36,858 bases of DNA from a virus, in UHGV virus genome UHGV-1010924; one strand, written 5' to 3'. Below the pieces are notes generated by a model. The model was not told the origin of the DNA and did no database searches. It was given only the letters and a program-made list of their open reading frames with translations. Shown here in pieces: positions 1,384 to 34,915 of the stretch (position 1 is its first letter; each line of letters begins with the position of its first letter). Made by a program: the position numbers and the translations under genes.

Positions 1384-1403
1384 AAATAGTCGGGAAACCG
1401 ACA
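1384..1403 (+). promoter_or_regulatory. Conserved late-region element, copy 1
   Basis: aaatagtcgggaaaccgaca. It lies 12 nt after the scaffold stop and 170 nt upstream of the capsid start. Confidence 0.6.
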
Positions 1404-1571
1404 CCCCCCACGCACGAACATCGCAGGCATCCCAGCAATGGGCCGGCCTGCGATGGCACGCAGACACCCGGAAAGCCCCGAGGCGCAGCAAAGCCGATGC
1501 ACGCCAGGTAATCCCGGCCCGCGATGCGGACAACCGGCAGGCAATCCCTAATCTGCATTGGAGTGCATCAT

Positions 1572-2435
1572 ATGTCCCAGCAAATCACCGAGGCGTTTGT
1601 CCAGCAGTTCGCTGACAACTTCCGCCACGTTGCTCAACAGTCCACCTCTCGCCTTGAGACCACTGTTGCGCAAGAGCCCAACATCGTCGGTATGTCCAAG
1701 TCGATCAACCGCCTGGGCCAGCGTACCGCTACCCGCCGCACCCAGCGCCACGGCGACACCCCGATCAACGATCAACCGCACTCGACCCGCTACGTCGACC
1801 TCTACGACTGGGAAGACGGCGACATGGTCGATGACCAGGACAAGATCCGTATGTTGGTTGACCCGACTTCGGACTACGTCAAGGCCATGGTTGCCTCGCT
1901 GAACCGTGCCAAGGACGACGTAATCATCAGCTCGTTGGGCGGCAACTCGCGCTCCACCAGCGGCAATATCATCCTGCCTACCGCGCAGAAGATCGCCGTC
2001 GGCGGCACCAACCTGACCAAGGCCAAGATCATCCAGGCCAAAACCCTGTTCCGCACCAACGAAGCGGACGAGGAAGCGGGCGAAGAGCTGTACATGCTCT
2101 ACAACGCTGCGGCCGCTGCACAGATCCTGGCTGACACCACCCTGACCAGCACCGACTACCTCGCCGGCCAGTTCCTGCGTGAAGGCAGCGTGCGCGGCAA
2201 GTGGATGGGCTTCAACTGGATTCCTACCGAGCGCTGCCCGAAGGTATCGACCACTCGCTTCCTGTACGCCTACGCCAAGTCCGGCGTAACCCTGGGCAAG
2301 GGCGCGGACATCATGACCAAGGTTGGCGAAGATCCAGGCAAGGGCTTCAACGTCCGCATCTACGCCAAGATGTCTATCGGCTCCGTCCGGGTCGAAGAAG
2401 AGAAAGTCGTGGAGATCGCCTGCCTTGAGCCATAA
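1572..2435 (+). CDS. Major capsid protein (T7 gp10-like)
   Basis: ATG at 1572 preceded by GGAGTG. 287 aa. Position between scaffold and tail tubular A. A strong intrinsic terminator follows the next small gene, analogous to T-phi after T7 gene 10. Confidence 0.7.
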   Translation: MSQQITEAFVQQFADNFRHVAQQSTSRLETTVAQEPNIVGMSKSINRLGQRTATRRTQRHGDTPINDQPHSTRYVDLYDWEDGDMVDDQDKIRMLVDPTSDYVKAMVASLNRAKDDVIISSLGGNSRSTSGNIILPTAQKIAVGGTNLTKAKIIQAKTLFRTNEADEEAGEELYMLYNAAAAAQILADTTLTSTDYLAGQFLREGSVRGKWMGFNWIPTERCPKVSTTRFLYAYAKSGVTLGKGADIMTKVGEDPGKGFNVRIYAKMSIGSVRVEEEKVVEIACLEP

Positions 2436-2480
2436 GCCAGGCGCTTCACAACCCAACTCATTGATTCAGGAGCTTTAAAC

Positions 2481-2942
2481 ATGGCAACCGTTCTCGCAAG
2501 TCTCGCGGCAGCCCGAGTGGCTTACCCGCAAACCCTGGTTAAACCGAACCTGCAAGGTGCGGACATCCAGACCTTCATCAGTACTTACACCGTGCCAGTT
2601 GGTGGTGTGGCCATCGGCGACGTGATTTCGTGGGGCTATCTGCCCTTCGGCGCTCGCCTGATGCCAGGCACCGCCATCTTCTGCGCCGCCGGCACCGCGT
2701 CGTCCACCATCAACCTGGGCGATGCCGTGACTCCGGCTCGGTACATGGCTGCATCGTCTGCCGCGTCCGCTGCCAAGCTGCCGGCCGAAGCCCAGTTCAC
2801 CAACGGCGCGCTGTTTGAAGTGAGCGTGACCAAGCCAGGTGACGCAACCGACACCAGTGAACTGCGCTCTGTCGTGGCAGGCGCCGCACTGCTGGCCGGC
2901 CAGGTGCTGACCTTGGTGGCCTTCTACGCCGGCCAGAACTGA
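2481..2942 (+). CDS. Hypothetical virion protein (153 aa, Ala-rich); possible minor capsid or decoration protein
   Basis: RBS AGGAGC at 2467-2472. Located between the capsid gene and the terminator at 2976. Confidence 0.5.
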   Translation: MATVLASLAAARVAYPQTLVKPNLQGADIQTFISTYTVPVGGVAIGDVISWGYLPFGARLMPGTAIFCAAGTASSTINLGDAVTPARYMAASSAASAAKLPAEAQFTNGALFEVSVTKPGDATDTSELRSVVAGAALLAGQVLTLVAFYAGQN

Positions 2943-2975
2943 TTTCACGGGCCGCCATGGACGGCAACAATTTAC

Positions 2976-3001
2976 CGGGGCCGTGTGCCCCGGTCTTTTT
3001 A
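2976..3001 (+). terminator. Rho-independent terminator after the capsid genes (analogous to T7 T-phi)
   Basis: Stem ccggggc/gccccgg (7 bp), loop cgtgt, followed by tcttttta. Confidence 0.75.
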
Positions 3002-3014
3002 TCTGGAGGTTGGG

Positions 3015-3602
3015 ATGACAATGGCCACAGGTGTATCGATCTGCTCCAACGCGCTACTGATGCTTGGGGCTCAGACCATCAACGACTTTGCCGATCAGGA
3101 GAACCTTGACCGGGCGAAGCTGTGCGCGAACCTGTACCCGACCGTCCGTGATGACATGTTGCGCGCCCATCCGTGGAACTGCTGCGTCAAACGCGCTGTG
3201 CTGGCGCCTGATGCTGTTGCCCCTGCTTTCGGTTACTCCCAGTCCTTTGAGCTTCCGGCTGACTTCTCGCGGGTGCTGGAGGTTGGCGCCAATGGTTGCC
3301 AGATCGATTACTTGGTCGAGGGCCGCACGATCCAGGCGAACACCACGGTGCTTGAGTTGCGCTACGTGTTCCGCAACGAGGTGGAAAACACCTGGGATGC
3401 TCACTTGGTGAAGCTGGTCACCCTGGCCATGGCCGCCGCGATGGCTTACCCGGTGACGCAATCGGCCTCGATGCAGCAAACCATGGAGCAGAAGCTGGAG
3501 ACATCCCTGCGCCGCGCCCGCGCCGTCGATGGCCAGGAAGATCCGCCGCAGACCCTGGGCGATGAACGACTGTACGCCGCGCGCTTCGGGAGTTACTGGT
3601 AA
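3015..3602 (+). CDS. Tail tubular protein A (T7 gp11-like)
   Basis: 196 aa, the same length as T7 gp11. RBS GGAGG at 3005-3009. The N-terminal pattern ICSNALLMLGAQTINDF resembles the T7 gp11 N-terminus. Synteny supports the call. Confidence 0.7.
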   Translation: MTMATGVSICSNALLMLGAQTINDFADQENLDRAKLCANLYPTVRDDMLRAHPWNCCVKRAVLAPDAVAPAFGYSQSFELPADFSRVLEVGANGCQIDYLVEGRTIQANTTVLELRYVFRNEVENTWDAHLVKLVTLAMAAAMAYPVTQSASMQQTMEQKLETSLRRARAVDGQEDPPQTLGDERLYAARFGSYW

Positions 3603-5764: not shown

Positions 5765-5771
5765 GGTTCCC

Positions 5772-6215: not shown

Positions 6216-6216
6216 C

Positions 6217-6735: not shown

Positions 6736-8753
6736 TGGCACAGATTCCGCTGGGCAATTTCGCGCAGGCACGCGCCGTACCAGATGCACCGCAGAACCGC
6801 GTTGTCACCATGGACAACCGTGGACAGGCCCAGGCCGCGCAACAGGTCGCCAGCACCGTGCAGAGCGCGGCGTTGGGCGTGCTGGACAACATCAACAAGG
6901 AAGACCAGGCCCTTGCCAGGGTGAAGGCCAGTAACGCGCTTATCGACCGCGAGTCGCAGATCAAGACCATCGCCACGGACCTTGACGAGAAAATGCGCAC
7001 CGGTCAGTTGCCCTACGAAAAGTCCGAAGAGGCATACAACGCCGCTGTGTCCAAGCTTGACCCGGTGATAACGCCAGGTCTGGACGAGGCGCAACAGGGC
7101 GAGATCGGCAACTCGATCAAGCGCATCCAGCTGGGCGGCCTGGACAGCATCCGTTCCTCGGCAGCCAAGGGGCGTATCCAGTCGGCACAGAGCGACCTGG
7201 TGTCGCGCATGGATATGCTGGGCAAAGATGCCGCCATGCCCGGTGCAAACGTTGACCAGATCAATGCCCGCATGGATGCCGAAGACATTGACGTTGCCGG
7301 CCACCTGGCGTTCGGCGAAGCCTGGACCAGCAAGAAGCAGGAATTCAAGGACAACAACTGGACCACACACGCCACCCAGCGCGTGATCGAGGCGCGGGAA
7401 AGTGTGGGCAGCCTGCAAAAGCTTGAGCATGACCTGACCGCCGAGGACGGTTTCTACGCCCGCAAGCTGGACCCCGAGAAGCGCAATCAACTGCTGAACA
7501 CCGTGAGCGGTCGCATCTTCCAAGTGAAGGAACACCAGCAGCGCCAGGCCGAAATGCGCGAAATGAAGGCCGAGCGCGCGCTAACCCAGATGGATCGCCA
7601 GGCCGCCACCGGGGTTCCGCCAACACCTGCAGATCAGCAGCGGTGGAAATCGTTGGTCTCCGGCACGTCCGTTGCCGGCGAGTTCAACACCCGCATGCAG
7701 GAAATGACCCAGGTGCAGACCCTGCTGAGACAGCCGCCAGCGGTGGCCCAGCAGTTCATCGACCAGCAGCGCCAACAGATGCAGGCGAACGGCGGCAGCG
7801 TGGCCCAGCAAGCCAACCTGAACCGGTTGCAGTCGGCGGTGGACAACAACATCAAGATGATGCGCGAAACCCCGCTGGTGTTTAACGCCATGCGCACTGG
7901 CTCCGATGTTGCACCACTGGACGTGGCGGGCATTGCCACGCCCGAGGGCCAACAGAAGCTTGGCGAGCAGATTGCCGACCGGTTCGACGTGGTCAACGCG
8001 GTGCGCAAGGCATATGGCCCTGAGGTCAACCGCAACCCATGGAAGCCAGAAGAACAGGTCATGCTGTCCTCGCTGATCAAGCAGGCCGACGATGGCACCA
8101 AGCTGCAACTGTTAGGCGCCATCGCAAAATCTTCACCGTCTGGGGCTGACTATGCCGCCGCGATAAAACCAATCGCGGGCGATGACCCGATTGTAACCTT
8201 GGCAGGCATGGCTCAGTTCCGCAAACTCAAGGGCGCAGACGGCACCGACGTACCGCGCACGCTGCTGGCCGGTGCAAAGGTGCTGGCCGACAAATCGGTG
8301 CCGCTGCCCAAGGACAAGTTCTTCCGCGAGGCATTCGACGAACACGCCGGGGCATCGCTGGTTCCTGGCACCCCGCAGCGCGAGCAAGCCTACCTTGCAT
8401 TCAAATCCCTGTACGCCGGCACCGCCGCGTCGAAGGGGTTGAAGTACGACGAGGGTGACGATCTGGACAAGAAGACCGCCCAGGCCGCGTTCGATATGGC
8501 AACCGGTGGTGTTGCTGAGCGGGCCGGCGCCCGGGTGATAAAACCGTATGGGATGGATGACGACACGTTTAACAAGTCCGTGGATATGCAGCTGGAAGGC
8601 ATGGCCAAGAACAGCAAAATCCCAGTGAGCCAGCTGGAAGACATGCCAATGATGCCGGTGCCAGGCAAGGAGGGCATGTACTACCTGCTGAACGCCGGCC
8701 GGGTGCAGCTTGACCCGGACACCCAACAACCCATCACGGTGATCGTCAAATGA
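6735..8753 (+). CDS. Internal virion (ejection/core) protein, gp15-like (672 aa)
   Basis: Large helical, Gln-rich protein at the T7 gp15 position. ATGA overlaps on both sides. Confidence 0.6.
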   Translation: MAQIPLGNFAQARAVPDAPQNRVVTMDNRGQAQAAQQVASTVQSAALGVLDNINKEDQALARVKASNALIDRESQIKTIATDLDEKMRTGQLPYEKSEEAYNAAVSKLDPVITPGLDEAQQGEIGNSIKRIQLGGLDSIRSSAAKGRIQSAQSDLVSRMDMLGKDAAMPGANVDQINARMDAEDIDVAGHLAFGEAWTSKKQEFKDNNWTTHATQRVIEARESVGSLQKLEHDLTAEDGFYARKLDPEKRNQLLNTVSGRIFQVKEHQQRQAEMREMKAERALTQMDRQAATGVPPTPADQQRWKSLVSGTSVAGEFNTRMQEMTQVQTLLRQPPAVAQQFIDQQRQQMQANGGSVAQQANLNRLQSAVDNNIKMMRETPLVFNAMRTGSDVAPLDVAGIATPEGQQKLGEQIADRFDVVNAVRKAYGPEVNRNPWKPEEQVMLSSLIKQADDGTKLQLLGAIAKSSPSGADYAAAIKPIAGDDPIVTLAGMAQFRKLKGADGTDVPRTLLAGAKVLADKSVPLPKDKFFREAFDEHAGASLVPGTPQREQAYLAFKSLYAGTAASKGLKYDEGDDLDKKTAQAAFDMATGGVAERAGARVIKPYGMDDDTFNKSVDMQLEGMAKNSKIPVSQLEDMPMMPVPGKEGMYYLLNAGRVQLDPDTQQPITVIVK

Positions 8754-10657
8754 GCTGGCTAGACGGGATGATCGAGGACAACGAAGCGCTGAGCCAAGAC
8801 CAGCGCCTCGACCGCACCACGGATAAGCTGGCGCCTGGCGTGTTCACGGGCGCACTCAGCACCATCGGGCCTAACCTGCTACGCGGCGCCATTGAGGGCG
8901 GTCGTACGATCCAGTCCACGGCGTTGCAACTGGGCAGCCTGGCCGTTGAATCCGACCTGTCCATCAGCTCATCGTACGCGCCGGATGATGGCCAACTGGC
9001 TGATCAGCAGCAGTTTCGGGAAACCCAGGCCCGCGACATCGGCGAGAAAACCGCCAAGTCGGTCATGAGCCTGCGCCCCGACCCAAGTGAGGTCGGCCTT
9101 GTCGGCCAGATCCTGGGCGAGGCATCCGCCGTATTGCCGCGTACCATTGCCGGCGCCGTGGTTGCCGGTCCTGCCGGTGCGGCCCTGGCTGCTGGTGGAC
9201 CAGCAGGTTTCTCCAGCAAGCAAGTGGGCATGGCCGAGGGCCTGGACGAATCCACCGCCACCAAAAAGGGCTTGATCGACGCCGCGACCACGGGCATCGG
9301 CGTTGCGCTGCCGGCGGCCAGGTTCGTCAAACCGATCCTCGGCGATGCCGCTATTGCTGTCGGTGCCAACGTTGGGCTGGGCATGGCCGGCCGTGGTGCT
9401 ACCGCCGCGCTACTGGAAAGCAATGGCTATCACAGCCAGGCCGCACAGTACAAAGCCTTGGACGGAACAGCGATGGCGACCGATGCGATCATGGGCCTGG
9501 CCTTCTTTGGCCTTGGCCGTGTCAACTTTCGCCGCCCGACCACTCGCCAAGTGGATGCCGCGCTGACTGAACGCACCAACCAGCATGCCGATATCGACAC
9601 CGCCCCGGGTGCACCCATTGATCCAAAGTCGGCCATGGCCCACCAAGACGCGATCCGTACCGTGATCGACCAGCTGCAACGCGGTGAGCCGGTGGTGCTG
9701 CCCGACAGCATCCATAGCGCCCAATTCATTCGCGCCGCCGATGAGCCGCGCGGTATGGCGCCGAGCAAGGACGCCGCCCTTGCCACGGCGCGCCAGGATC
9801 TGGAGCCGAAACTGCGCGTTGAGCTGGAGCAGGAAGCCGCCGGCATCTTGCCAAACGTAAAGGACGTGAAGGCCGAACTGTCTACCGTTGCCCAAAACCT
9901 GGCCGCCCTGGACGACACCTTCAAGGCCCGTGCCAAGGAATTCCAGCAGCAGGGGCAGAGCCGCAAGCAGGCCGAAGCATCCGCGCGCCAGGCAATTGAG
10001 GCTGATCGGCTTGACCTGTCCGACCGTCAAAACTCGTTGAACGAAGCATTGGGCGGTAACCGAAGTGCCGAGCATCCGCGCGCAGACCTGAATGCGCTGG
10101 ATCGCGGCGAGGTGCCGGCCAGGTTCCAGGATCGCTTATCACAACGCGCCGATGCCATCGTGCAGGGTTTCGAGAAAAAGCCGTTGGCTGCCGGTGTCGC
10201 CGAGGCCAACACCAAGCTGACCATGGCGCAGATCGCCCGCCAGGAAATCACCCGCATCCTCGACGACATCGAGCGTGCCGACCCTACGTTGCAGCCGAAA
10301 GCTCTGGACATTCCGGAGCCAAAGGTTGCACCGAAGGCCGATGGCGCGGCGCCCAAGGCTGAATCCCCACCTGGTGGGAAAGCTGGCGCGCAAGATAAGC
10401 CAGCCCCGGCGAACGATGCCGCCAAGCCTGATGGTGCAGCAGCCCAGGCCGATCCGGTGGTGCAGGTTGCCGACGAAATCCTATCGCGCGTCGATGACAT
10501 GCGTATCTCAACGGGCGCCATGGACGCCGACGGCAACCCGATCACAGTATCGGCGCGTGAACTGCTGGCCAATGCTGACGCAGAAATCGTCAAGGCCCAG
10601 CAGGACGCCAAGGGTTTCGCCGCCGCCGCCGCTTGCTTCCTGCAACGCGGGCTCTAA
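8750..10657 (+). CDS. Internal virion (ejection/core) protein (635 aa)
   Basis: Large Ala-rich protein in the core-protein block. Its stop TAA lies inside late element copy 2. Confidence 0.55.
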   Translation: MSWLDGMIEDNEALSQDQRLDRTTDKLAPGVFTGALSTIGPNLLRGAIEGGRTIQSTALQLGSLAVESDLSISSSYAPDDGQLADQQQFRETQARDIGEKTAKSVMSLRPDPSEVGLVGQILGEASAVLPRTIAGAVVAGPAGAALAAGGPAGFSSKQVGMAEGLDESTATKKGLIDAATTGIGVALPAARFVKPILGDAAIAVGANVGLGMAGRGATAALLESNGYHSQAAQYKALDGTAMATDAIMGLAFFGLGRVNFRRPTTRQVDAALTERTNQHADIDTAPGAPIDPKSAMAHQDAIRTVIDQLQRGEPVVLPDSIHSAQFIRAADEPRGMAPSKDAALATARQDLEPKLRVELEQEAAGILPNVKDVKAELSTVAQNLAALDDTFKARAKEFQQQGQSRKQAEASARQAIEADRLDLSDRQNSLNEALGGNRSAEHPRADLNALDRGEVPARFQDRLSQRADAIVQGFEKKPLAAGVAEANTKLTMAQIARQEITRILDDIERADPTLQPKALDIPEPKVAPKADGAAPKAESPPGGKAGAQDKPAPANDAAKPDGAAAQADPVVQVADEILSRVDDMRISTGAMDADGNPITVSARELLANADAEIVKAQQDAKGFAAAAACFLQRGL

Positions 10658-10675
10658 ATAGTCGGGAAACCGTCT
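10656..10675 (+). promoter_or_regulatory. Conserved late-region element, copy 2
   Basis: aaatagtcgggaaaccgtct. It overlaps the stop of the 8750-10657 gene and lies 45 nt upstream of the 10721 gene. Confidence 0.6.
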
Positions 10676-10689
10676 ACCGCTGAACCATA

Positions 10690-10719
10690 GGCTTGCTCCC
10701 ATTCAACCAGGAGCAAGCC
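10690..10719 (+). other. Perfect 10-bp stem-loop sequestering the Shine-Dalgarno sequence of the 10721 gene
   Basis: ggcttgctcc (10690-10699) pairs with ggagcaagcc (10710-10719) across a 10-nt loop. The AGGAG ribosome-binding site lies in the 3' arm. The ATG is at 10721. Confidence 0.6.
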
Positions 10720-13261: not shown

Positions 13262-13596
13262 TGCGCGACGATCAAATCACGCGGTTGCAAGCCCTGAGTG
13301 AAAGCCTCGGCGAGGTTGTCATCCATGAGGTTGACCCGGCGAACTGGCCCGGTGCCGAGAAAGACCCAGCAGACCTAACCCAGCAGGAGCGGGGTGATAG
13401 GTACTGGAGCAAGAAAAACGCAGCCGCCACCATGACGCTGCTGCTCAAGGTCGTGAACATCAGCGGCGTCCTGAACAAGCAAAAGCCGGGTGAGGATGAT
13501 GGCGCCGCCAAGGAACTGGATGGCGAATTAGCTGCCGCCGAACGTGAGGCCCAGGCCATCATCGACCGGATGCAGCGAGCCGGGAATGTCCACTGA
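13261..13596 (+). CDS. Putative terminase small subunit (T7 gp18-like, about 111 aa)
   Basis: Small acidic protein directly upstream of, and overlapping, the large terminase. RBS AGGAGA at 13250-13255. Confidence 0.45.
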   Translation: MRDDQITRLQALSESLGEVVIHEVDPANWPGAEKDPADLTQQERGDRYWSKKNAAATMTLLLKVVNISGVLNKQKPGEDDGAAKELDGELAAAEREAQAIIDRMQRAGNVH

Positions 13597-15208
13597 ACCA
13601 GAGAAGAAAGTCAGCCTACTGATTTTCTTCATGCTGTGGGCGCGGCGCATGCGATGGGATGTGCCGTACATCCATGTGCAGGCGCTTATGTGGCTGGAGA
13701 CCAAAGGGTCTCTGGCCGTTTTGCGTTGCTTCCGTGGCTTCGGCAAGTCGACGTTGTTGGCGATCTACAACGCCTGGCGCTACTACAAGAACCCGACCGA
13801 CCGGATATTGCACCAATCAGAATCCGACCCGACCGCGTACAAGACCAGCCGCGATACGCAGAACGTCATACGCAACCATCCATTAACCCGCCACCTGCTA
13901 CCACCCAACCAGGGCACGGTAGAGCAATGGTGGGTAGAGGGCGCCACGGACTTTCGAAACGCCAGCATGTTCGCCAAGGGGATTTTGTCCAACGTTACCT
14001 CGGCCCGTGCAGACGAGTGCCAGAACGATGATGTCGAGGTGCCGCGCAATATCCAGACGCCCGAGGCCCGAGAGAAGCTGCGCTACCGCCTGGGCGAGCA
14101 GACACACATTCTGGTTCCTGGCGGCAGCAAGCTTTACATCGGCACGCCGCACACCCACGACAGCCTCTATGACGAACTCGAAAGCATGGGTGCCGACTGC
14201 CTGACCATCCGCATGTTCGCCCAGGAGCATCGGATTGAGGACGCTAAACAGTGCGCGTACGACGTTCCGTTTGTGCCGGACGTTGTGTTCTCGGGCATTG
14301 GTAAGCATGCGCGCGTGCTGTTGGCTGGGCGGGATTACCAACTGACCAAGACCGGTATCGCCTTCTTCACCCCGCCCGGAACGCTCGTCGACTGCTACGC
14401 CGGCAGCGCCTGGCCTGAGCGTTTCGACATGGCGACCCTGGAGACGCGGCGCCGCGAGACCCGGACCATCAACGAATGGGACTCCCAGTATCAGCTGCAT
14501 TCGAAGCCCGTCACGGAGGTTCGCTTGGACCCGGCCCGCATCATCCCGTACGACGCGCAGCCGGTTATGCGCTATGCCAACGATTCCGCCGCCATGTTCC
14601 TGGGCTCGACGCAGATCGTCGGTGCCGTGGCTTATTGGGACTGTTCCCTGGGCAAGATCAAGTCCGATGCCTCGGCCTTCTCGCTGATCCTCACCGATGC
14701 GCGCGGCCAGCTCTATTGGCATTTGGCCGTGGGCCTGACCGGGGAGATCGCGGAGTTCGACGGCAAGGACCGGATCATTGGCGGCCAGGTGCACCAGATC
14801 CGCGAACTGGTGATCAAGCATCAGATCCCGCGCGTGATCATCGAGACCAACGGCCCAGGCGGGTTTGCTCCCACCATCCTCAAGCAGGCGCTCAAGGGCA
14901 CCGGCTGCGGGGTAGGGGAGGAACACTCCACCACCAACAAGCAGAAACGCATCCTAGACGCCTTCGAATCGCCGCTATCAGCACGGTTCCTATGGGCGCA
15001 CGTCGAAGTGTTGAAGGTGATCTGGGACCAGATGCGCGACTTCAATCCAGCGCTCACCAACCAGGAAGACGACTACATCGATTCCGGGGCCGGCGGCATC
15101 GCTCAAACCCCCGTACGCATTGGCCGAATAGTCGGGAAACCGACAGAGACCCGTCGTGACAATTGGCGTCCAGATGCGGGCGTTCATGAGGTTCAAGTGG
15201 ACTATTAA
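13586..15208 (+). CDS. Terminase large subunit (T7 gp19-like)
   Basis: ATG at 13586 (MSTEPEKK). P-loop-like GFGKSTLL. About 540 aa. Lies between the small terminase and the tail fibre. Confidence 0.8.
   Translation: MSTEPEKKVSLLIFFMLWARRMRWDVPYIHVQALMWLETKGSLAVLRCFRGFGKSTLLAIYNAWRYYKNPTDRILHQSESDPTAYKTSRDTQNVIRNHPLTRHLLPPNQGTVEQWWVEGATDFRNASMFAKGILSNVTSARADECQNDDVEVPRNIQTPEAREKLRYRLGEQTHILVPGGSKLYIGTPHTHDSLYDELESMGADCLTIRMFAQEHRIEDAKQCAYDVPFVPDVVFSGIGKHARVLLAGRDYQLTKTGIAFFTPPGTLVDCYAGSAWPERFDMATLETRRRETRTINEWDSQYQLHSKPVTEVRLDPARIIPYDAQPVMRYANDSAAMFLGSTQIVGAVAYWDCSLGKIKSDASAFSLILTDARGQLYWHLAVGLTGEIAEFDGKDRIIGGQVHQIRELVIKHQIPRVIIETNGPGGFAPTILKQALKGTGCGVGEEHSTTNKQKRILDAFESPLSARFLWAHVEVLKVIWDQMRDFNPALTNQEDDYIDSGAGGIAQTPVRIGRIVGKPTETRRDNWRPDAGVHEVQVDY
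15127..15145 (+). promoter_or_regulatory. Conserved late-region element, copy 3
   Basis: aatagtcgggaaaccgaca. It lies inside the 3' end of the large-terminase coding sequence, 90 nt upstream of the tail-fibre start. Confidence 0.55.
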
Positions 15209-15234: not shown

Positions 15235-17448
15235 ATGGCAGTTCCAGCAGGACCAACCGAAAAACGTTACACCGGCAACGGGGTAACCAAGATTTTCTCC
15301 ATACCCTTCTTGCTCATAGCTGCAACTGACCTGGATGTAATCATTGATGGCGTTGAGGTTGTTTCCGGATACGCGATAACGGGCGCAGGCAATCCGAGCA
15401 GCACTATCACATTCGTCACGGCGCCTGCGGACCAAAGCTCAATCCTGCTTACGCTCAACGTACCGTTTGAACGACTGAACGACTACCAAGAGAACGGCGA
15501 TTTTCTTGCTAGTACTGTAAACCGAGACTTCGACAAGATATGGCAAGCACTTAAGCAGCTCGTTCGGTACAGCACCAGGGCGCTTACGCTCGGTGCTTTT
15601 GACGTCGATGGTGCCGGACTGTACAGGGCCAAAGGTAATGGTATCGCCAACCTCGGATCTGCCAATGGCGTTGACACGGCGGCAGCGAACTGGAAGGACG
15701 TTAAGGACCAGATAGCGTTGGTTCTGGCGACGGGCCAGGGTCCAATCAATAATGCGGCGAATATGGCTTACATCACTCCATCTAGCAACGTGCGCACCGT
15801 TCAAGGCATGTCCGGGGCTGACGGCTCGTATTTTATTGGGCATGGGGATACGACAGTTGGTGCTGAGATTGTTGCCATTGATGCTCAACTACAAGCACAG
15901 GCTGGGCAGATATCCAAAACGGGGATCTATCCGGGGCAGCACTTTGCGGCAATTAATGGCGGCCAGTTAAACAAACTGCGCCTGGCTTTGACTGATCCGT
16001 TCATGCAATACCTTGGAATCTGCATCATCGGTGACAGCATCACTTGGGGGATGACGGCATCCGGCATCGCGCCGATTGAGCCGCGAGGCGGCTCTCTGAC
16101 AGATTCCAGGAACAACGGTTCGTCGGCGACCTGGGTGAATCTTTTGCACAAGTGGTTGGGCGCCGAATATTACGATTCGACAACGGTTGAAGAAGGAATT
16201 TGGCCTGGCACGCCAAACGGCGTGGCACAGTTCACCTACACCAAAGCTGTGGATATGTTTCCAGGGTTTGCACCGTTTGTTAAGGTCGGCTCGTTCTCCC
16301 AGCTTGTTGATGCGGCATCAACCCTGGGGGTTTTTTGGTTTGTGAACATGAGTTCGTCGGGTAGCGGCCCCCACTCGTTCACTTGGACCATGACAGGAAA
16401 AAGCTTTGATCTGCGTTTTGCCGCAGTGCCCAATGGGGCGGATTACAAGGTATATGTCGATGGTGTTCTGCAAGGGCAATACAAAACCAGTTCCACCGAT
16501 CTGGGAATTCCTGTCAGCTATCGCAATAGCAGAACTCACGACTTCACATTTAAAAAGGGCGCGGTGATACGCGTAGAGGCGGTAGGCGGTAACGTTGCTC
16601 GCGATGTACTTCAAGTTGAATCGATCCGCCTCAACCGAAAAGTAAGAGTGACCAACCAAGGGATTATTGGTGTCGCGTCTGATCGTTATTTGAATGTGCT
16701 GCTGTCAAGCGCGCTACGCGCCGATGATTCGTTCTGCAAGATTCAGATTGGCACCAATGATCGCGGCATGCCCCCGGCTATTGGGGCTCCAACTTCCCCA
16801 GCGACACTCAGCAAGAACATGGGGTTGATACTTGACTACGTGATTGCGGCAGGGGTATCGCCCATCATGATGTGCGCCAATGAGGTAGTGGATAACAGTC
16901 TGCCTACCTATTACTACAGCATGGGCCAAGTTAGAACGGTGCTTTCGAGTTTGGCAATAAGCCGTGGTGTGGACTTTATTGATCAGTTTGCACTTACCAA
17001 AAGACTGCAGGCGGCAGGTGTTAATTATTTGGCTGACGGCCTTCACCCAAATGACCTTGGGCATTTCTTGATGTTCGAAAACATCAGGAACGCCATCGGC
17101 AACCCGGTGTTTGTGGCCGAAAAGAGCCTTGCCAATTACTACGAAACCACGGTTTCCTGGACAGCCGGCGCCGTACAGACCATCACGCACAACCTGGGTG
17201 CGATCCCTGTTCGCGTTGAGTTTGAAGTCGTAATGAAAACGGCGGGGGCGGGAATGGCTGTAGGTCAGTCGGCCATGACTTCAATGACGATTCAGGCTGC
17301 TGCGAGCTACAACGCAATGGCACGCAGCGGCACGACTACAACAGTGGAGGTTGTTGTTGCGCCCCAGGGCCTCGCGGTTCTGGTCGCCGGTGGCTCAAGC
17401 GTCTTGAGCCCTGCCCAGGCTGATTTGAAGGTGAAGGTTTTCACGTAG
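15235..17448 (+). CDS. Tail fibre/tailspike: T7 gp17-like N-terminal adaptor domain fused to an SGNH/GDSL esterase domain
   Basis: The N-terminus (YTGNGVTKIFSIPFLLIAATDLDVIIDG) matches the T7 tail-fibre N-terminal domain pattern. Residues 262-271 carry the GDSL block LGICIIGDSITWG. Near the C-terminus is the block-V motif DGLHPNDLGH. GC is about 50%, against about 62% for the genome. Confidence 0.7.
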   Translation: MAVPAGPTEKRYTGNGVTKIFSIPFLLIAATDLDVIIDGVEVVSGYAITGAGNPSSTITFVTAPADQSSILLTLNVPFERLNDYQENGDFLASTVNRDFDKIWQALKQLVRYSTRALTLGAFDVDGAGLYRAKGNGIANLGSANGVDTAAANWKDVKDQIALVLATGQGPINNAANMAYITPSSNVRTVQGMSGADGSYFIGHGDTTVGAEIVAIDAQLQAQAGQISKTGIYPGQHFAAINGGQLNKLRLALTDPFMQYLGICIIGDSITWGMTASGIAPIEPRGGSLTDSRNNGSSATWVNLLHKWLGAEYYDSTTVEEGIWPGTPNGVAQFTYTKAVDMFPGFAPFVKVGSFSQLVDAASTLGVFWFVNMSSSGSGPHSFTWTMTGKSFDLRFAAVPNGADYKVYVDGVLQGQYKTSSTDLGIPVSYRNSRTHDFTFKKGAVIRVEAVGGNVARDVLQVESIRLNRKVRVTNQGIIGVASDRYLNVLLSSALRADDSFCKIQIGTNDRGMPPAIGAPTSPATLSKNMGLILDYVIAAGVSPIMMCANEVVDNSLPTYYYSMGQVRTVLSSLAISRGVDFIDQFALTKRLQAAGVNYLADGLHPNDLGHFLMFENIRNAIGNPVFVAEKSLANYYETTVSWTAGAVQTITHNLGAIPVRVEFEVVMKTAGAGMAVGQSAMTSMTIQAAASYNAMARSGTTTTVEVVVAPQGLAVLVAGGSSVLSPAQADLKVKVFT

Positions 17449-17477: not shown

Positions 17478-18773
17478 CTACCCGTTCACCTTTAATTTGA
17501 ATTCTGCGCGCTGCACTTCGGTCACTCCATCACGCAGCGCGTCGAGATAATCCGCATACCACTGCATCATGTGGCGGCGCTGGGCCAGGTATTTGGCTTT
17601 GTTGTACACGCCGCTTATGCCGCCTTCCTTGTGGGCCAACTGCATTTCGATGTGATCTTTCTCCCATCCGTGTTCGCGCAGCAGCGTGCTTGCGGTGTGT
17701 CGGGTGCCGTGACCTACCAGCCTTCCTTTATAGCCAACCAGGGCGAACACCTTATTAATGGTGTTCTCGCTGATAACCGGGTTTGCGTGGCCGTTACCGG
17801 GGAACAGGTATCGACTGCGCCCGGTTAGTTCGTGCAGATCTCGCAGCGCGGTGACAGCCTGCTTTGGTAAAGGGATCATGATGTCCCGGTCCATCTTCAT
17901 CTTGGCCGCCGACACGCTCCACACCGAAGCTTCCAGATCGAAGTCGGTCCACTCTGCCCACCTGGCCATGCCTGGGCGAGACGCGGTCCACAGCGTGAGC
18001 ATCGCCGCCGCCCTGGCAATCAACCGGCTGGGCGAGCGCTGCATGGCCCGCATGAAGTCGGGCAACTCGTCTTCCAGCAGGTGCGGGTATTGTTTGGTGG
18101 CGGGTGCCTGGGCGGCGATCACCAGCAGCTCGGAGGCCGGGTTGTATTCCATCATGCCCTTGGCTATGGCCTGGCTGAAAATCTCCTTCAACCACCCGCG
18201 CGTTTTCTTGGCGACGTTGAACGCCTCGCGCGCCTCAATGCTGGCGAGCAGGTCGGCGCAGTGCCGGCGGGTGATAGCGCTGACCTGCAAATCGCCCAGC
18301 GCGGGGTAGATGTCCTTGTCCAAGTAGGTCGTGATCTTGTCGAGGGTTGACGCCGAACGCCCGTCGCGCTCCTTCTTTTCAAGCCAGGCAGTGGCCACGG
18401 CGCGGAAGGTGCTGGCGGTGGCGGCCTCCACGGCCTTCTTGACGGCCTGCTTGTGGTTGCCTGGGTCGATACCTTGCTCAAGCAGGGCGGATGCCTGTGA
18501 GGCTTTCTCCCTGGCGCGCTTGGCTGAATACTCCGGGTATCCGCCCAACCCCAGCCAGGTCCACTTCCCGTCAGCCACACGCTTGTAGCGGAACTCCCAG
18601 CGCTTGCGCCCATTGGGTGACACCACGAAGTAGATACGATCGATGCCGTACGTCTCGCGGTATTCCTTGGATTCAGGTTCAAGTGAGGACAGGACGGTGT
18701 CGGCCAGGGGGCGGCGCTTGATGTCTGATCGCTTCAATTCTTGTATGGCCGAGTTCGTAATTTTGGCGAACAT
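17478..18773 (-). CDS. int: Tyrosine integrase, P4-type, with an N-terminal arm-DNA-binding (DUF4102-like) domain
   Basis: 431 aa. The N-terminus follows the P4-integrase arm domain pattern (RYKRVADGKWTWLGLGGYPEYSAKRAREKA). The C-terminus has HGTRHTASTLLRE, LAH and a Tyr in VYNKAKY (the R-H-R-H-Y catalytic set). Confidence 0.9.
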   Translation of the reverse strand: MFAKITNSAIQELKRSDIKRRPLADTVLSSLEPESKEYRETYGIDRIYFVVSPNGRKRWEFRYKRVADGKWTWLGLGGYPEYSAKRAREKASQASALLEQGIDPGNHKQAVKKAVEAATASTFRAVATAWLEKKERDGRSASTLDKITTYLDKDIYPALGDLQVSAITRRHCADLLASIEAREAFNVAKKTRGWLKEIFSQAIAKGMMEYNPASELLVIAAQAPATKQYPHLLEDELPDFMRAMQRSPSRLIARAAAMLTLWTASRPGMARWAEWTDFDLEASVWSVSAAKMKMDRDIMIPLPKQAVTALRDLHELTGRSRYLFPGNGHANPVISENTINKVFALVGYKGRLVGHGTRHTASTLLREHGWEKDHIEMQLAHKEGGISGVYNKAKYLAQRRHMMQWYADYLDALRDGVTEVQRAEFKLKVNG

Positions 18774-26133: not shown

Positions 26134-26144
26134 TCCGATGTCGA

Positions 26145-26671: not shown

Positions 26672-27328
26672 CTACAGCGCCGATCTAGGCCACTTTGCGT
26701 CAACCACACGCCCAACGACTGACCATGTGTCATCCACCTCTACGGTGGGAAATGCAGGGTTCAAAGGTTTTAGGTAGGCTCGGCCCGAGTCCCATATGAA
26801 CTGCTTGAACGTCGCTTCATTAGTGTCTATCAGCTTAGCTACGACATATTGACCATTCTCCACGTCGCCACCCGGCGCCACCAGGATCAGCATCCCCTCG
26901 CTGAAACTCATTCCATTCGTCGAGGTCATGGATGGACCTCTGACCTTTAGCCAGAAGCCGTTAGGCCCGGCCCAGGCGTCGGATGGGTGCATCGCTTCGA
27001 AGTCGCCTACGTTGAACAAATCCATTGCCTCCGCCGCCACCCCAGCCTGCACCCAACTAATTTCCGGGTATTCATAATATCGCGTTGGTCCCTGAGCTGA
27101 CTCAACGTTGGCATCAAAGGTGTCATCTCCAATTCCATACATAAGCCACTCAGGGGAAACCTTAAGTGCTCGTGCCAACTTGGCAATAGTCGGCATACGC
27201 GGGCTTTCGCTCTCGCCTGACAGTATCCGATTGATTGTTGGCTGAGGAACACCAGACCTTTTGCCGAGCTGCGTTTCATTCAGGCCAATGTCGGCCATTT
27301 TTGCGCGTATGCGCCCAGCGATATCCAT
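26672..27328 (-). CDS. cI: CI-type repressor: XRE HTH plus a LexA-like S24 autopeptidase domain
   Basis: The N-terminal HTH is QLGKRSGVPQPTINRILSG. The C-terminal S24 signature has GPSM with its Ser, and the Lys of VAKLID. 218 aa. Divergent from cro. Confidence 0.9.
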   Translation of the reverse strand: MDIAGRIRAKMADIGLNETQLGKRSGVPQPTINRILSGESESPRMPTIAKLARALKVSPEWLMYGIGDDTFDANVESAQGPTRYYEYPEISWVQAGVAAEAMDLFNVGDFEAMHPSDAWAGPNGFWLKVRGPSMTSTNGMSFSEGMLILVAPGGDVENGQYVVAKLIDTNEATFKQFIWDSGRAYLKPLNPAFPTVEVDDTWSVVGRVVDAKWPRSAL

Positions 27329-31616: not shown

Positions 31617-31798
31617 GCAAGACATCCCAGCGCAAGCGCCAGGCGTACGAAGAGGGTCACCGTGATGCTAAGAGCCGCAACGGGATCAGGTATTCGCGCC
31701 ATCCATTCATGGATGCGTACAGAGCCGGATATCGGGATGGTTTGGATGCTTCCAAGCCGAGAACCTTGCTTCAATGGTTCCGCGAGGTATTTGCATGA
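31613..31798 (+). CDS. Hypothetical basic small protein (61 aa)
   Basis: GTG start overlapping the ninB stop; its stop overlaps the ninG start. Confidence 0.4.
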   Translation: MSKTSQRKRQAYEEGHRDAKSRNGIRYSRHPFMDAYRAGYRDGLDASKPRTLLQWFREVFA

Positions 31799-32376
31799 GC
31801 CTCCAAGCCAAACAACCCCGCCCAAAGAAGTGCAAGAACCCAGCATGCGGCGAGAAGTTCGTCGCTCAACGCCTGGGCCAAGCCGTATGCAGCCCCAAGT
31901 GTGGCCTCGCCATCAAGGACGTAAACCAAGACAAAGCCCGCAAGGCCATCGCCGAGGTAGGCCGCAAGGAGCTGAGAGCGGCCAAGGAGCGCGTAAAGCC
32001 GAAGGGGCAGTACATGCGTGAGGCTCAGGCTGCGTTCAACGCTTGGATACGCGCCAGAGACGCCGCCCAGCCATGCATCAGTTGTGGTCGTCACCATGAT
32101 GGCCAATACCACGCCGGGCACTACCGCACAGTCGGCTCAAGCCCAGAGCTTCGCTTCGAGCCGCTCAACGCGCACAAGCAGTGTGCACCCTGCAACAACC
32201 ACAAGTCCGGCGACATCGTGAACTACCGCATAAGCCTGGTAGTGCGCATAGGGCAGGACAAGGTGGAATGGCTTGAAGGGCCGCATGAGCCGCAGCGCTA
32301 CACCATCGACGATCTCAAGGCCATCAAGGCCGAGTACCGCGAAAAGCTGAAACAACTCTTGGGGGAAGCAGCATGA
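31795..32376 (+). CDS. ninG: NinG/Rap-family protein
   Basis: Close pattern match to lambda NinG: KKCKNPACGEKF...CSPKCG, PCISCGRH...AGHYRT, LRFEPLNAHKQCAPCNNHKSGD, KAIKAEYREKLKQL. Confidence 0.9.
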   Translation: MSLQAKQPRPKKCKNPACGEKFVAQRLGQAVCSPKCGLAIKDVNQDKARKAIAEVGRKELRAAKERVKPKGQYMREAQAAFNAWIRARDAAQPCISCGRHHDGQYHAGHYRTVGSSPELRFEPLNAHKQCAPCNNHKSGDIVNYRISLVVRIGQDKVEWLEGPHEPQRYTIDDLKAIKAEYREKLKQLLGEAA

Positions 32377-32588
32377 TGACCATCGACGTGCGTACAGGCG
32401 TATATCCCGAGGGTTTGATCGTTACCGAAGTGATTGACGACATCGGGACTTATCGTGAACGCATCGTGCGCCAAGTGCTGAATACGAAGGAACAGCAGGT
32501 TCGTGAAGCGCTAATCAAGCTTGGTTGGACTCCGCCAGAAGGTGCGACAACCGACTCTGCCTCGCGCGCGCACGCGTTTGGAGGCTAA
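32373..32588 (+). CDS. Hypothetical protein (71 aa)
   Basis: ATGA overlap with ninG. Confidence 0.4.
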   Translation: MMTIDVRTGVYPEGLIVTEVIDDIGTYRERIVRQVLNTKEQQVREALIKLGWTPPEGATTDSASRAHAFGG

Positions 32589-32590
32589 CC

Positions 32591-32851
32591 ATGCTCGCCC
32601 ATGCGGAGGTGCGCGTTGACTGGTTCCAGGTCATCAACGGGATTCTGCGTGCTGGGTATTCGATCCAGTCGGCGGCGGAGGTGATCAAGGTTCCGCGTTC
32701 AACGTTGATCGGATGGAAGCAGGGTGCAGAGCCTCGGTATACGGAGGGTGAGCGCCTTGTGTCGTTCTGGGTCCAGGCTACGGGCCGGGACCGTAAATCA
32801 TTGCCCATGGTCGCGGTAGGGGACTGGTGGGCTTATCACTCGAAAGCATGA
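32591..32851 (+). CDS. Small HTH protein (86 aa); candidate late-gene regulator at the lambda Q position
   Basis: ATG at 32591 with RBS GGAGG. HTH-like YSIQSAAEVIKVPRSTLIGW. It is the last regulatory-looking gene before the late element, terminator and lysis cassette. Confidence 0.45.
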   Translation: MLAHAEVRVDWFQVINGILRAGYSIQSAAEVIKVPRSTLIGWKQGAEPRYTEGERLVSFWVQATGRDRKSLPMVAVGDWWAYHSKA

Positions 32852-32861
32852 GGGAATACCG

Positions 32862-33185
32862 ATGAAACACGAAGACGAACAACGCGTAATTGACCTGGCC
32901 GATGCTGCAGGTCGGGCTATGAGCAATGGCTTGCTTGGCCTGTCCGCCAAGCTGGCTGCCGAGGCTGAGAATTTGTTGCTGCAAGGCAGTGGCCAATCGT
33001 TCCTGGCCTATGGCGAACGTCGCGGGTTGAATATGGATCTGTTGCTCCCGCCCGGCCGCACCGTAAATGGCGAGCACCGACGCTATGAAAGCGAGAAAAC
33101 CCAAGAACTATTCGATTGCTGGCTTGCTGCTCGCGGGCAGAAGGTGTGGACTCCGCCAACTGATGGCGCAACGCCAGTCAAATAG
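32862..33185 (+). CDS. Hypothetical protein (107 aa)
   Basis: RBS GAGGG. Its stop TAG lies inside late element copy 4. Confidence 0.45.
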   Translation: MKHEDEQRVIDLADAAGRAMSNGLLGLSAKLAAEAENLLLQGSGQSFLAYGERRGLNMDLLLPPGRTVNGEHRRYESEKTQELFDCWLAARGQKVWTPPTDGATPVK

Positions 33186-33199
33186 TCGGGATTCCGACA
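33180..33199 (+). promoter_or_regulatory. Conserved late-region element, copy 4 (variant loop), directly upstream of a strong terminator and the lysis genes
   Basis: aaatagtcgggattccgaca. It overlaps the stop of the 32862-33185 gene. The terminator begins 31 nt downstream. Confidence 0.6.
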
Positions 33200-33230
33200 C
33201 CTGACAAGAACGACTCTTAGCGTCATCGCA

Positions 33231-33260
33231 GCCCAGCCACCTCGCGCTGGGCTTTTTTTT
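33231..33260 (+). terminator. Strong rho-independent terminator between late element copy 4 and the holin gene (like tR')
   Basis: Stem gcccagc/gctgggc, loop cacctcgc, followed by a run of eight T. Confidence 0.8.
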
Positions 33261-33277
33261 GACTCTGGAGGCCAACC

Positions 33278-33556
33278 ATGACGGCACCAGACAGGAGTAG
33301 CAGCATGGCCAACCCAGCACCCGAAAGCATCGTAGAGGTCGTTGGCGCGTCAGTCGCCAGCAAGGGGATGCTTACGGGCGGCGCCGTGGGGTTGGTTGGG
33401 TTCTTCTCGCAAGTGAACTGGATAGGCGTGTCGGGCGTTGTGATCGCGGTACTGGGCCTGCTGACAAACCTGTACTTTCAGGTGCGCAAGGATCGACGCG
33501 AGTCCATCGAAAGCGCCGCGCGCATTGAGTCGTTGAAAGAGCGTGCACGTTCATGA
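33278..33556 (+). CDS. Pinholin (phage 21 S-like class II holin)
   Basis: TMD1 MLTGGAVGLVGFF is weakly hydrophobic. TMD2 IGVSGVVIAVLGLLTNLYFQVRKDRR matches the phage 21 S pattern LGFLTYLTNLYFKIREDRR. Two Met codons lie near the N-terminus. Confidence 0.75.
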   Translation: MTAPDRSSSMANPAPESIVEVVGASVASKGMLTGGAVGLVGFFSQVNWIGVSGVVIAVLGLLTNLYFQVRKDRRESIESAARIESLKERARS

Positions 33557-34068
33557 GCCCCCAACTGCGTCAGCGCATCGCCGTAGGAATGCTGAGCATC
33601 AGCGCCGCCGGCTTCGCTACCTGGCAGGCCAACGAAGGCTTGACCACCACCGCAGTAATCCCCACACAGGGCGACGTGCCCACCATCGGCCACGGCTCGA
33701 CCCGTTACGAAGACGGCTCGCCAGTCCGCATGGGCGACACCATCACGCCCCAGCGCGCCGAGATCCTGGCCCGCAACCTGAACAGCCAAGCCGAGAAGCA
33801 GTTCGCCGCGTCACTGCCGGGTGTCACGCTGCATCAAACTGAGTTCGATGTGTACATGGACTTCGTGGGCCAGTACGGCATTGGCACCTGGCTCAAGGGC
33901 TCACCGCGCCGTGACCTGCTGGCCGGGAACTACGCCCAGGCTTGCAACGACCTGCTCAAGTACAAGTACGCCGCTGGGTTCGACTGCTCCACGCCGGGTA
34001 ACAAGCGGTGTGCTGGAGTCTGGGCTCGGCAGTTGAAGCGCCATGCCAAGTGCATGAGCGTGCAGTAA
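33553..34068 (+). CDS. SAR endolysin, T4-lysozyme-like (GH24)
   Basis: The N-terminal SAR domain IAVGMLSISAAGFATW is followed by EG...D...T in ANEGLTTTAVIPTQGDVPTIGHGST, as in phage 21 R. ATGA overlap with the holin. Confidence 0.85.
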   Translation: MSPQLRQRIAVGMLSISAAGFATWQANEGLTTTAVIPTQGDVPTIGHGSTRYEDGSPVRMGDTITPQRAEILARNLNSQAEKQFAASLPGVTLHQTEFDVYMDFVGQYGIGTWLKGSPRRDLLAGNYAQACNDLLKYKYAAGFDCSTPGNKRCAGVWARQLKRHAKCMSVQ

Positions 34069-34092
34069 TCCCCAACCGCAGAGGTAATACCC

Positions 34093-34446
34093 GTGAACGA
34101 TCAATCGATTGAGCAAGAAATCCAGGCCAAGGGCCTGACCGCGCCGCGCGTCACTCCGGCGGACCTGCAAGCCAATATCAAGGGGTGTGTCTACTTCACC
34201 GCCCAAGATGGTGTGCAGGGCAGTGATCCACATATGGCGCAATACACCGACAAGTCGCTGGATCTGCTGACCTTCTGTGTCCTGGTGCTGCGCAACGGTT
34301 TCACCGTCACCGGCGAGAGCGCATGCGCCAGTCCTGAGAACTTCGACGCGGAGTTAGGCCGCAAGATCGCCCGCCAGAACGCCGAGCAGAAGGTATGGCC
34401 GCTGATGGGCTACGCGCTCAAACAGCAACTGTACGCCGAGTCCTGA
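34093..34446 (+). CDS. Gp49-like lysis-module protein (117 aa; tentative Phage_gp49_66 family)
   Basis: GTG start after AGAGG. The GFTVTGESACASPENFDAELGRKIA pattern is recalled from lysis-region proteins of the N4 gp49 and Sf6 gp66 type. Confidence 0.4.
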   Translation: MNDQSIEQEIQAKGLTAPRVTPADLQANIKGCVYFTAQDGVQGSDPHMAQYTDKSLDLLTFCVLVLRNGFTVTGESACASPENFDAELGRKIARQNAEQKVWPLMGYALKQQLYAES

Positions 34447-34457
34447 CCGTGGGCGCC

Positions 34458-34901
34458 ATGGCTCGCTATCTCGTTGCAGGGCTTGCCATGGCGCTTGTTC
34501 TGGCGTTGTGGCGTCTCGATCATGTCAGCACCAGCCTTGCCGCCGCAACGCAGCGTGTGAGCGAGCTGGAGACCGCCAACGCATCACGCCGCGCCACCCA
34601 GAAGCTGCTGACCCAGCTCGACACCGACAACACGAAGGTACTCACCGATGCTCAAGCCCAGAACAAAGCCCTGCTTGCTCGCCTTGGCACTGGCGCTCAG
34701 CGGCTGTCAGTCCCAGCCAAGTGCCCCGTCGTGCGAACCAGCCCAGGCCCCGGCCGCGTGGATGATGCAGAAGCGCGCGCCGAACTTGACCCAGCGGCTG
34801 GTCAACGAATTGTCGGCATCGCCAACGACGGAGACGAAGCAATCATCGCCTTGAATGGATTGATCGATTACGTCAACGCCAGCTGCCTCCCTCGCAAATA
34901 G
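34458..34901 (+). CDS. Rz: Rz-like i-spanin
   Basis: An N-terminal TMD LVAGLAMALVLALW is followed by a coiled-coil periplasmic domain. An embedded lipoprotein ORF is present. An alternative GTG start lies at 34449. Confidence 0.7.
   Translation: MARYLVAGLAMALVLALWRLDHVSTSLAAATQRVSELETANASRRATQKLLTQLDTDNTKVLTDAQAQNKALLARLGTGAQRLSVPAKCPVVRTSPGPGRVDDAEARAELDPAAGQRIVGIANDGDEAIIALNGLIDYVNASCLPRK
34648..34854 (+). CDS. Rz1: Rz1-like o-spanin lipoprotein, embedded in Rz in the +1 frame
   Basis: Signal plus lipobox LLALALALSGC. The mature part is Pro-rich. It lies wholly inside Rz in a different frame. Confidence 0.65.
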   Translation: MLKPRTKPCLLALALALSGCQSQPSAPSCEPAQAPAAWMMQKRAPNLTQRLVNELSASPTTETKQSSP

Positions 34902-34915
34902 TCGGGAACCCGACA
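34896..34915 (+). promoter_or_regulatory. Conserved late-region element, copy 5 (variant)
   Basis: aaatagtcgggaacccgaca. It overlaps the Rz stop and lies 55 nt upstream of the 34971 gene. Confidence 0.55.

Follow-up and report, generated by a model that had tools for sequence, protein, structure and literature searches.

The window analysed here is the whole 36,858-nucleotide (nt) sequence of the UHGV virus genome UHGV-1010924, in which a 20-bp element recurs among the late genes of a temperate phage with a genome size of ~36.9 kb. The window ends inside the portal gene (35650-36858 plus 1-291), and since this gene is split across both ends the sequence represents a circularly permuted or circularised phage genome, not a prophage with host flanks. 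An integrase gene (17478-18773, minus strand) lies mid-window and the early region is lambdoid, with a cI-like repressor (26672-27328, minus strand), cro, an O-like replication protein, DnaB, NinB and NinG. After NinB and NinG, in the 'Q slot', lies the plus-strand gene of an 86-amino-acid (aa) helix-turn-helix (HTH) protein (32591-32851), the predicted late activator; its start was set at 32591 because most homologues are ~86 aa. The virion module is podoviral, with a PF19821 capsid protein, a nozzle, internal virion proteins and a T7-type terminase. A lipase-type fibre was among the matches of the large open reading frames (ORFs), and an 846-aa ORF, which was considered as a cryptic polymerase and rejected, matched PHROG 684 'virion structural protein' over its full length. 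The nearest isolated relatives are the Yersinia phages YeP4-6 and the HTVC010P-type phages. A nucleotide search of the phage collection with the window found no close relatives; IMG/VR contained 530 terminase relatives.

The pattern AAATAGTCGGGAAACCGACA, searched in the window with up to 3 mismatches, matched at exactly five positions, 1384 (0 mismatches), 10656 (2), 15126 (1), 33180 (2) and 34896 (1), all on the plus strand, and at none in 100 dinucleotide shuffles used as controls. The number and strand of the copies are those of the original prediction, which had been made from the window sequence alone; one coordinate had to be moved, from 15127 to 15126. A 38-position weight matrix derived from relatives and run on both strands of the window gave the five copies scores of 34-44 bits, the next best site on either strand scoring -3.3 bits and the best site in shuffled sequence 9.2 bits. 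The width of this gap indicates that the set is exactly five, with no weak, minus-strand, early or leftward copies, and so bears out the earlier statement that the minus strand and the early regions have none. As the permutation cut falls within the portal gene, the copies follow one another in the late operon in the order 33180, 34896, 1384, 10656, 15126. The pattern AATAGTCGGGANNCCGNC was found in >115 IMG/VR stretches, often several times per ~37-kb contig.

Each copy is followed by a hexamer with which it makes up a putative late promoter on the plus strand. Late promoter 1 (33180-33217; motif 33180-33199, hexamer GACTCT at 33212-33217; 40.6 bits) precedes the lysis cassette of holin, endolysin and Rz, and the TAG within its motif is the stop codon of the ORF at 32862-33185. 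The corresponding TAG of late promoter 2 (34896-34933; motif 34896-34915, hexamer GATTCT at 34928-34933; 43.6 bits) ends Rz (34395-34901), and downstream are 34971-35348, 35354-35557, the portal gene, 288-533 and the scaffold gene. Between the end of the latter (1372) and late promoter 3 (1384-1421; motif 1384-1403, hexamer GAACAT at 1416-1421; 44.2 bits) there are 11 nt, and the promoter is followed by the major capsid gene (1524-2435). Late promoter 4 (10656-10693; motif 10656-10675, hexamer TAGGCT at 10688-10693; 34.0 bits), a copy with the variant CCGTCT, is overlapped by the stop codon of the gene at 8750-10657 and stands before the genes of the 846-aa virion protein and of the small and large terminase. 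Late promoter 5 (15126-15163; motif 15126-15145, hexamer GACAAT at 15158-15163; 35.6 bits) falls within the large terminase gene (13544-15208), 63-83 nt before its 3' end, ahead of the tail fibre gene (15235-17448). The placing of the copies at stop codons, with the third near the terminase 3' end, agrees with the ORF list. Transcription would be predicted to start at ~33224-33225, 34940, 1428-1429, 10700 and 15170, each ±2. At the copy before the 846-aa gene the stem-breaking CCGTCT is paired with TAGGCT, the hexamer nearest to consensus, and this pairing is kept at the homologous sites in relatives, which suggests that a weaker activator site may be offset by a better -10.

A scan for consensus sigma70 promoters found none at any copy, excluding a complete sigma70 promoter at these sites, and a -10 element was therefore looked for alone. 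The hexamers lie exactly 12 nt 3' of each copy and have A at position 2 and T at position 6 in 5/5 cases, a pair characteristic of the -10 elements of the sigma70 family. The earlier remark that the element is unlike a sigma70 promoter holds for the 20-mer itself, which has no -35 or sigma70 match, but not for its surroundings, given the NAnnnT -10 hexamer at a fixed 12 nt. Among non-redundant contexts (n=52) the A and T, positions 34 and 38 of the matrix, hold ~1.6 bits of information each, against none in the 12-nt spacer, and the hexamers have the consensus GAyNCT, e.g. GATACT, GATGCT or GATCCT. The spacing is 11 nt in a few distant relatives and otherwise exactly 12 nt. In loci ascertained through the HTH protein the A/T pair accompanied 151 of 152 motif matches with ≤4 mismatches, all of them on the late-gene strand, and 0/20 control matches with 6 mismatches on both strands of the same loci. 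In bacterial genome contigs the pair was found at 13/14 Pseudomonas matches, versus 7/108 in other taxa. The non-Pseudomonas matches were single and at the expected chance background, and would mostly be chance matches to a 15-base pattern. Host repeats of the repetitive extragenic palindrome or miniature inverted-repeat transposable element type were rejected, the Pseudomonas contig matches being few per contig and provided with the promoter hexamer.

If the hexamer occupies -12 to -7, the element would lie at about -44 to -25 and replace the -35. Positions -35 to -30 then read GGAAAC, GGATTC or GGAACC, none a -35 hexamer, and the hexamer is mostly preceded by CC or GC rather than TG, so that an extended -10 is absent. 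The invariant core, GTCGGGA-NN-CCGA(C), is an imperfect inverted repeat that with this placing is centred at ~-32.5. The consensus sequences of host sigma54, extracytoplasmic-function, sigma32 and FliA promoters, compared by eye, did not match. The bipartite architecture, the fixed spacing and the late-strand positions support the earlier proposal that the copies are late promoters or the sites of a dedicated activator.

The inverted repeat could in principle act in DNA or in RNA. Across 34 distinct variants none of the five stem pairs showed double changes, and 18 of 170 cells were unpaired (T:T, G:A, A:C), a number equal to that in shuffles. The two central bases, which would form the loop, vary freely (AA, TT, AC, TC, AT); within the window copy 2 breaks the stem (CCGTC) and copies 4 and 5 alter the loop, as had been noted before. 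An Rfam scan of the whole window gave no family match. An unbiased synonymous test was provided by 80 relatives ascertained by the terminase protein alone, at 68-99.6% identity. The element, followed by the hexamer, was present at the same codon position in 80/80. Its 5' AAATA part varied with the protein sequence (GGAACG, AATTGG, AAGTGG), and the core GTCGGGA-NN-CCGA was unchanged in all. The third positions of the four-fold codons GTC, GGG and CCG were invariant in 72/72 distinct terminase sequences, and ten nearby conserved four-fold codons varied, with major-allele frequencies of 0.31-0.83. Such frozen synonymous positions indicate that the DNA sequence itself is under selection and, together with the lack of compensatory stem changes, favour recognition of DNA over RNA, as was originally suggested. 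The same genomes contain an RNA structure that does covary, a hairpin that lies past the predicted start in the leader of the capsid mRNA (1444-1470, plus strand; CGG-CCTGCG-ATGGCA-CGCAG-ACAC-CCG). Compensatory double changes were seen at 6/8 of its pairs across relatives, down to Yersinia phage YeP5, and its loop (G/A)TGGC and 3' flank A(C/T)A(A/C)CC are conserved; the data set can therefore detect RNA structure where it is present. This leader hairpin might control translation as an operator, mark a site of processing or act as a stabiliser.

When motif-bearing loci were compared with the proteins of the window, the HTH protein was found in 34 loci and its neighbours in 0-3, and the HTH gene always lay just 5' of a motif copy on the same strand. 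The small ORFs at 32373-32588 and 32862-33185 were considered as regulators and rejected, since they occurred in 1 and 3 loci against 34 for the HTH protein and belong to no family. In a sample of 80 loci ascertained by the HTH protein alone, the motif was located downstream on the same strand in 73, in 72 of them within 1 kb with ≤5 mismatches; neither the opposite strand nor the 6 kb upstream had a credible copy. This co-occurrence and co-orientation strengthen the case for the product of 32591-32851, which had been put forward as a candidate regulator. The seven loci without a copy comprise the two most distant homologues (43% identity), where the motif was absent from the little downstream sequence examined, and five (L277, L278, L281, L283, L297) in which only AAATAG of the motif follows the HTH gene, before unrelated sequence. 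In these five the promoter may be a recombination junction between phage modules, or the prophages may be truncated. The end of the HTH gene in relatives ranges from 2 nt inside to ~970 nt upstream of the lysis-cassette copy.

The association extends to other phage backbones. Contigs of 52-64 kb share no protein with the window within 6 kb except the HTH protein, whose gene follows RusA/NinB and precedes the motif and the small terminase gene. In Yersinia phage YeP5 (50% G+C), the HTH protein is 45% identical and the early region is quite different. Four clear copies of the element, T(A/G)GTC(G/A)GGA(AA/TT)CCGA(A/C)C, lie ahead of lysis, capsid and other late genes, with hexamers at 12 nt in 4/4 (TAAAAT, CACACT, TAGCCT, GACCAT). 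In the mosaic relative APSE the HTH slot is taken by a Q antiterminator (PMC8579659). Between the HTH gene and promoter 1 the window has the plus-strand ORF 32862-33185, of 107 aa and without family; relatives have varied small ORFs in this gap, several ending in acidic/aromatic ...FW... or ...CW..., and the gap is a variable accessory slot.

Searches of Pfam, NCBIfam and PDB sequences with the HTH protein gave no significant match. Its family of ~85-aa proteins comprises 1163 clusters (50% identity) at E ≤ 0.001 and 345 at E ≤ 1e-10, and the named members are all 'hypothetical'. The AlphaFold model (mean predicted local distance difference test score 88.4) has a five-helix lambda-repressor/Xre fold, nearest to the controller proteins of restriction-modification (R-M) systems. 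Within the alignment T38, G41, W42 and Q44 of the recognition helix and the GAEP that follows are invariant, as is the DNA core. Close members also share an almost unvarying C-terminal tail, DWWAYHSK, which is a candidate for the activation surface. The protein was not encoded by any of the isolated Pseudomonas phages of the phage collection, and full-text literature searches with the motif string, YeP4-6 and Pseudomonas late activators found no description of the motif, the protein or this system.

Terminators accompany many of the promoters. An intrinsic terminator on the plus strand at 33230-33261, with an 8-bp G+C-rich stem and T8, lies 5-6 nt past the predicted start of promoter 1 and before the holin gene (33278), and the order promoter-terminator-holin is kept in Pseudomonas relatives. 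Strictly defined terminators ≤42 nt from the hexamer numbered 46 instances (21 distinct). A promoter-proximal terminator is absent after the other four copies in the window and after the YeP5 copies. The terminator at 33230-33261 could provide insulation from early read-through, attenuation, or a target for antitermination. Intrinsic terminators were also found immediately 5' of the element in 22 distinct contexts, which is the usual terminator-then-promoter order, and homologues of copy 1384 have one directly upstream in several relatives and in YeP5. A further terminator-like hairpin on the plus strand (2974-3003), with arms ACCGGGGC...GCCCCGGT at 2974-2994 and then a T-run, follows the capsid gene and the gene at 2481-2942 and overlaps the start of the ORF called at 2985. 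By analogy with terminator Tphi in T7 it would give an excess of capsid mRNA.

Taken together, it is likely that the elements are the activator-binding halves of late promoters used by host sigma70 RNA polymerase with the phage HTH protein as activator. The bipartite architecture with its fixed spacing, the selection at the DNA level, the co-inheritance with the HTH gene and the predicted Xre-type fold are the established parts of this account, and from them it may be inferred that the HTH protein binds the element, activates rather than represses, and acts as an oligomer. The HTH protein would be made at the end of the early rightward (delayed-early) operon and bind the core GTCGGGA-NN-CCGA(C), probably as a dimer. 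There it would recruit or stabilise the sigma70 holoenzyme at a weak -10 without a -35; having no -35, no TG and a weak -10, the promoters should be inactive unaided. Five units would be switched on, namely lysis, portal and scaffold, capsid and tail, the 846-aa virion protein and terminase, and the tail fibre.

Several observations weigh against this account. The PHROG family of the HTH protein carries the tentative label 'transcriptional repressor'. In approximately 16 motif-bearing loci, from other types of prophage, no HTH gene was detectable within the stretch examined. The lysis-cassette promoter of the window and of Pseudomonas relatives has a strong terminator 5-35 nt past its predicted start, which a model of activation alone leaves unexplained, so that there is room for an antitermination component. 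Finally, a site centred at -32.5 overlaps the usual position of sigma region 4, and in R-M controller systems it is the promoter-proximal site that represses (PMC2275141); simple recruitment may therefore not be the whole mechanism.

An explanation that takes up the terminator is Q-like antitermination, in which element and hexamer form a loading site where the HTH protein engages RNA polymerase and renders it terminator-resistant, as lambda Q does at pR'/qut, perhaps besides activating it. The HTH gene does stand in the Q slot behind the genes of NinB and NinG, a strong and conserved terminator separates the first copy from the holin in the manner of pR'-tR', the hairpin at 2974-2994 lies within the late operon, and a -10-like hexamer also serves as a pause signal for Q proteins. 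Against it, no sigma70 promoter that could supply a paused complex lies ahead of the element or inside it (AAATAG is without the essential final T and differs among relatives), a processive antiterminator needs no five copies, and the YeP5 copies have no promoter-proximal terminator. The candidate is moreover an 86-aa Xre-fold protein with no Q-family match in Pfam, NCBIfam or PHROG, and Q-like antitermination is considered unlikely. That the HTH protein sits over the -35 region as a repressor and shuts the late promoters off would fit the overlap of the site with the -35, the PHROG label and the repression exerted from promoter-proximal controller sites. Promoters expected to be inactive unaided leave it little to repress, however, and the phage has a separate cI-type repressor at 26672-27328. 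A repressor of late genes also makes no regulatory sense when it is expressed from a delayed-early operon and lies in the Q slot of mosaic relatives, and this role is very unlikely.

A ~20-bp, highly conserved element at late gene boundaries on one strand is also what would be expected if the 20-mer were the whole promoter for a phage RNA polymerase or sigma-like factor, whether T7-type, N4-type or a phage sigma, and its 5-bp inverted repeat resembles the N4 hairpin promoters. Yet no RNA polymerase match was obtained in Pfam or PHROG, all ORFs of >600 aa being virion or fibre proteins, and the hairpin is not maintained. The T7-type late promoter of the original prediction is further contradicted by the pattern of conservation, which halts at position 20 and resumes at the hexamer: a variable 12-nt spacer interrupts it, where a T7-type promoter would be conserved for ~23 bp through the start site. 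The sole co-inherited protein, an 86-aa HTH of Xre fold, is too small for a sigma factor, and a promoter for a phage polymerase or sigma-like factor is highly improbable. An RNA element, with the GTCGG-GAAA-CCGAC hairpin as a processing, stability or nut/boxB-like site, would suit the location at 3' gene ends and the 5-bp stem with a GNRA-type loop that is possible in three of the five copies. It is the explanation least to be expected, in view of the 0 compensatory changes in 34 variants, the free loop and the lack of an Rfam match, and it leaves a hexamer at fixed distance without a role.

Some copies occur outside late operons of this kind. In L039, L096, L036, L090, L043, L092 (motif at 12210), L102, L012, L048, L078 (motif at 9960) and L026 there is a single complete promoter, in which motif, 12 nt and hexamer are followed by an unannotated 61-aa ORF (MRAFAEAIVAIAPVTSRKSRNRF...). 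The HTH regulator was not detected in the stretch examined. The ORF has excisionase-like and integrase genes as neighbours, lies at the end of prophage contigs as long as ~83 kb, and could be a gene that responds in trans to the late activator of another phage. In L058, L081, L103, L105 and L070 the promoter is embedded in a lambda-like tail operon, flanked by gpI-like and gpJ-like genes. Downstream of it come a terminator, a 35-aa membrane ORF (PHROG 6632) and another terminator, so that the whole resembles a moron insertion. An observation of another kind concerns 19521-19975, the sole stretch of the window with a near-identical counterpart (96-97%) in the phage collection. The matching sequences are hypothetical genes in Pseudomonas phage phiAH14a and in a 'human fecal' Bacteriophage sp. 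record, which marks the stretch as a small mobile module in the leftward early region.

A more far-reaching version of the activator model, which must be considered doubtful, is that the 86-aa protein is no ordinary recruiter but a one-protein switch that seizes the -35 contact, in the manner of sigma appropriation yet with no AsiA/MotA pair, perhaps leaving the RNA polymerase terminator-resistant, and that other prophages sense the late phase in trans. The switch is suggested because the site occupies the DNA of sigma70 region 4 and promoter 1 fires into a terminator, and the sensing because single promoter copies front small ORFs in prophages where no regulator was detectable in the stretch examined.

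The activator model would offer a late-gene switch that can be tested in temperate Pseudomonas podoviruses, a large and unstudied group, and would assign a likely function to a widespread, unnamed family of ~85-aa proteins. The 38-bp consensus could be used to annotate late operons in these prophages, and activator and promoter would form a compact, probably orthogonal pair for Pseudomonas engineering. The geometry, with a site in place of the -35, a fixed 12 bp and a proximal terminator, offers a comparison case for small phage proteins that redirect sigma70 polymerase.

Among known systems, the middle promoters of T4 have a MotA box 12 ± 1 bp from the -10 and centred at -30, which replaces the -35 (PMC2988021). 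The likeness is that a phage element stands in the place of the -35, here at exactly 12 bp and with its centre at ~-32.5. The MotA box is, however, a 9-bp asymmetric sequence and the core here a 14-bp imperfect palindrome; T4 middle promoters need an excellent -10, whereas the -10 elements here are weak; and the genes served are middle genes in T4 and late genes of a temperate phage here. Neither MotA, with its double-wing DNA-binding domain, nor the co-activator AsiA had a family among the Pfam/PHROG matches of the scanned ORFs, and there is a single 86-aa Xre-fold candidate in their stead. R-M controller (C) proteins, which are small and dimeric, bind palindromic sites and switch on a weak promoter, most likely by way of sigma70 region 4 (PMC2275141). 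They resemble the HTH protein in size and in its predicted Xre fold, but neither they nor lambda cI, the regulator at PRM, have detectable sequence similarity to it. C proteins bind tandem C-boxes before their own gene, whereas the sites here are downstream and dispersed, with five targets instead of one and no R-M genes, and the single site takes the place expected of the repressing proximal C-box. A tandem OL/OR operator is likewise absent.

The position of the HTH gene recalls lambda Q, both being in the slot after the nin genes and ahead of the lysis cassette, and the promoter and terminator before the holin recall pR'-tR'. The two proteins are nevertheless unrelated in size and fold, the promoter here is predicted not to be constitutive, and there are five sites instead of one. 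Mu C and Mor, P2 Ogr, P1 Lpa and the Gram-positive RinA/ArpU/LtrC are small DNA-binding proteins of temperate phages that activate several late promoters with a -10 and without a -35, from sites at about -43 to -55 for C, Mor and Ogr and at about -22 for Lpa; the HTH protein matches none of them in Pfam or PHROGs. Lambda cII, at pRE, pI and paQ, straddles the -35 with half-sites TTGC-N6-TTGC, and GTCGG and CCGAC similarly flank -35 to -30 here. The cII half-sites are, however, direct repeats bound by a tetramer at lysogeny promoters, and the HTH protein is unrelated to it. Late promoters under the control of a small dedicated activator are already known; the novelty lies in the family of the regulator, in the consensus and in a geometry that puts the site in place of the -35.

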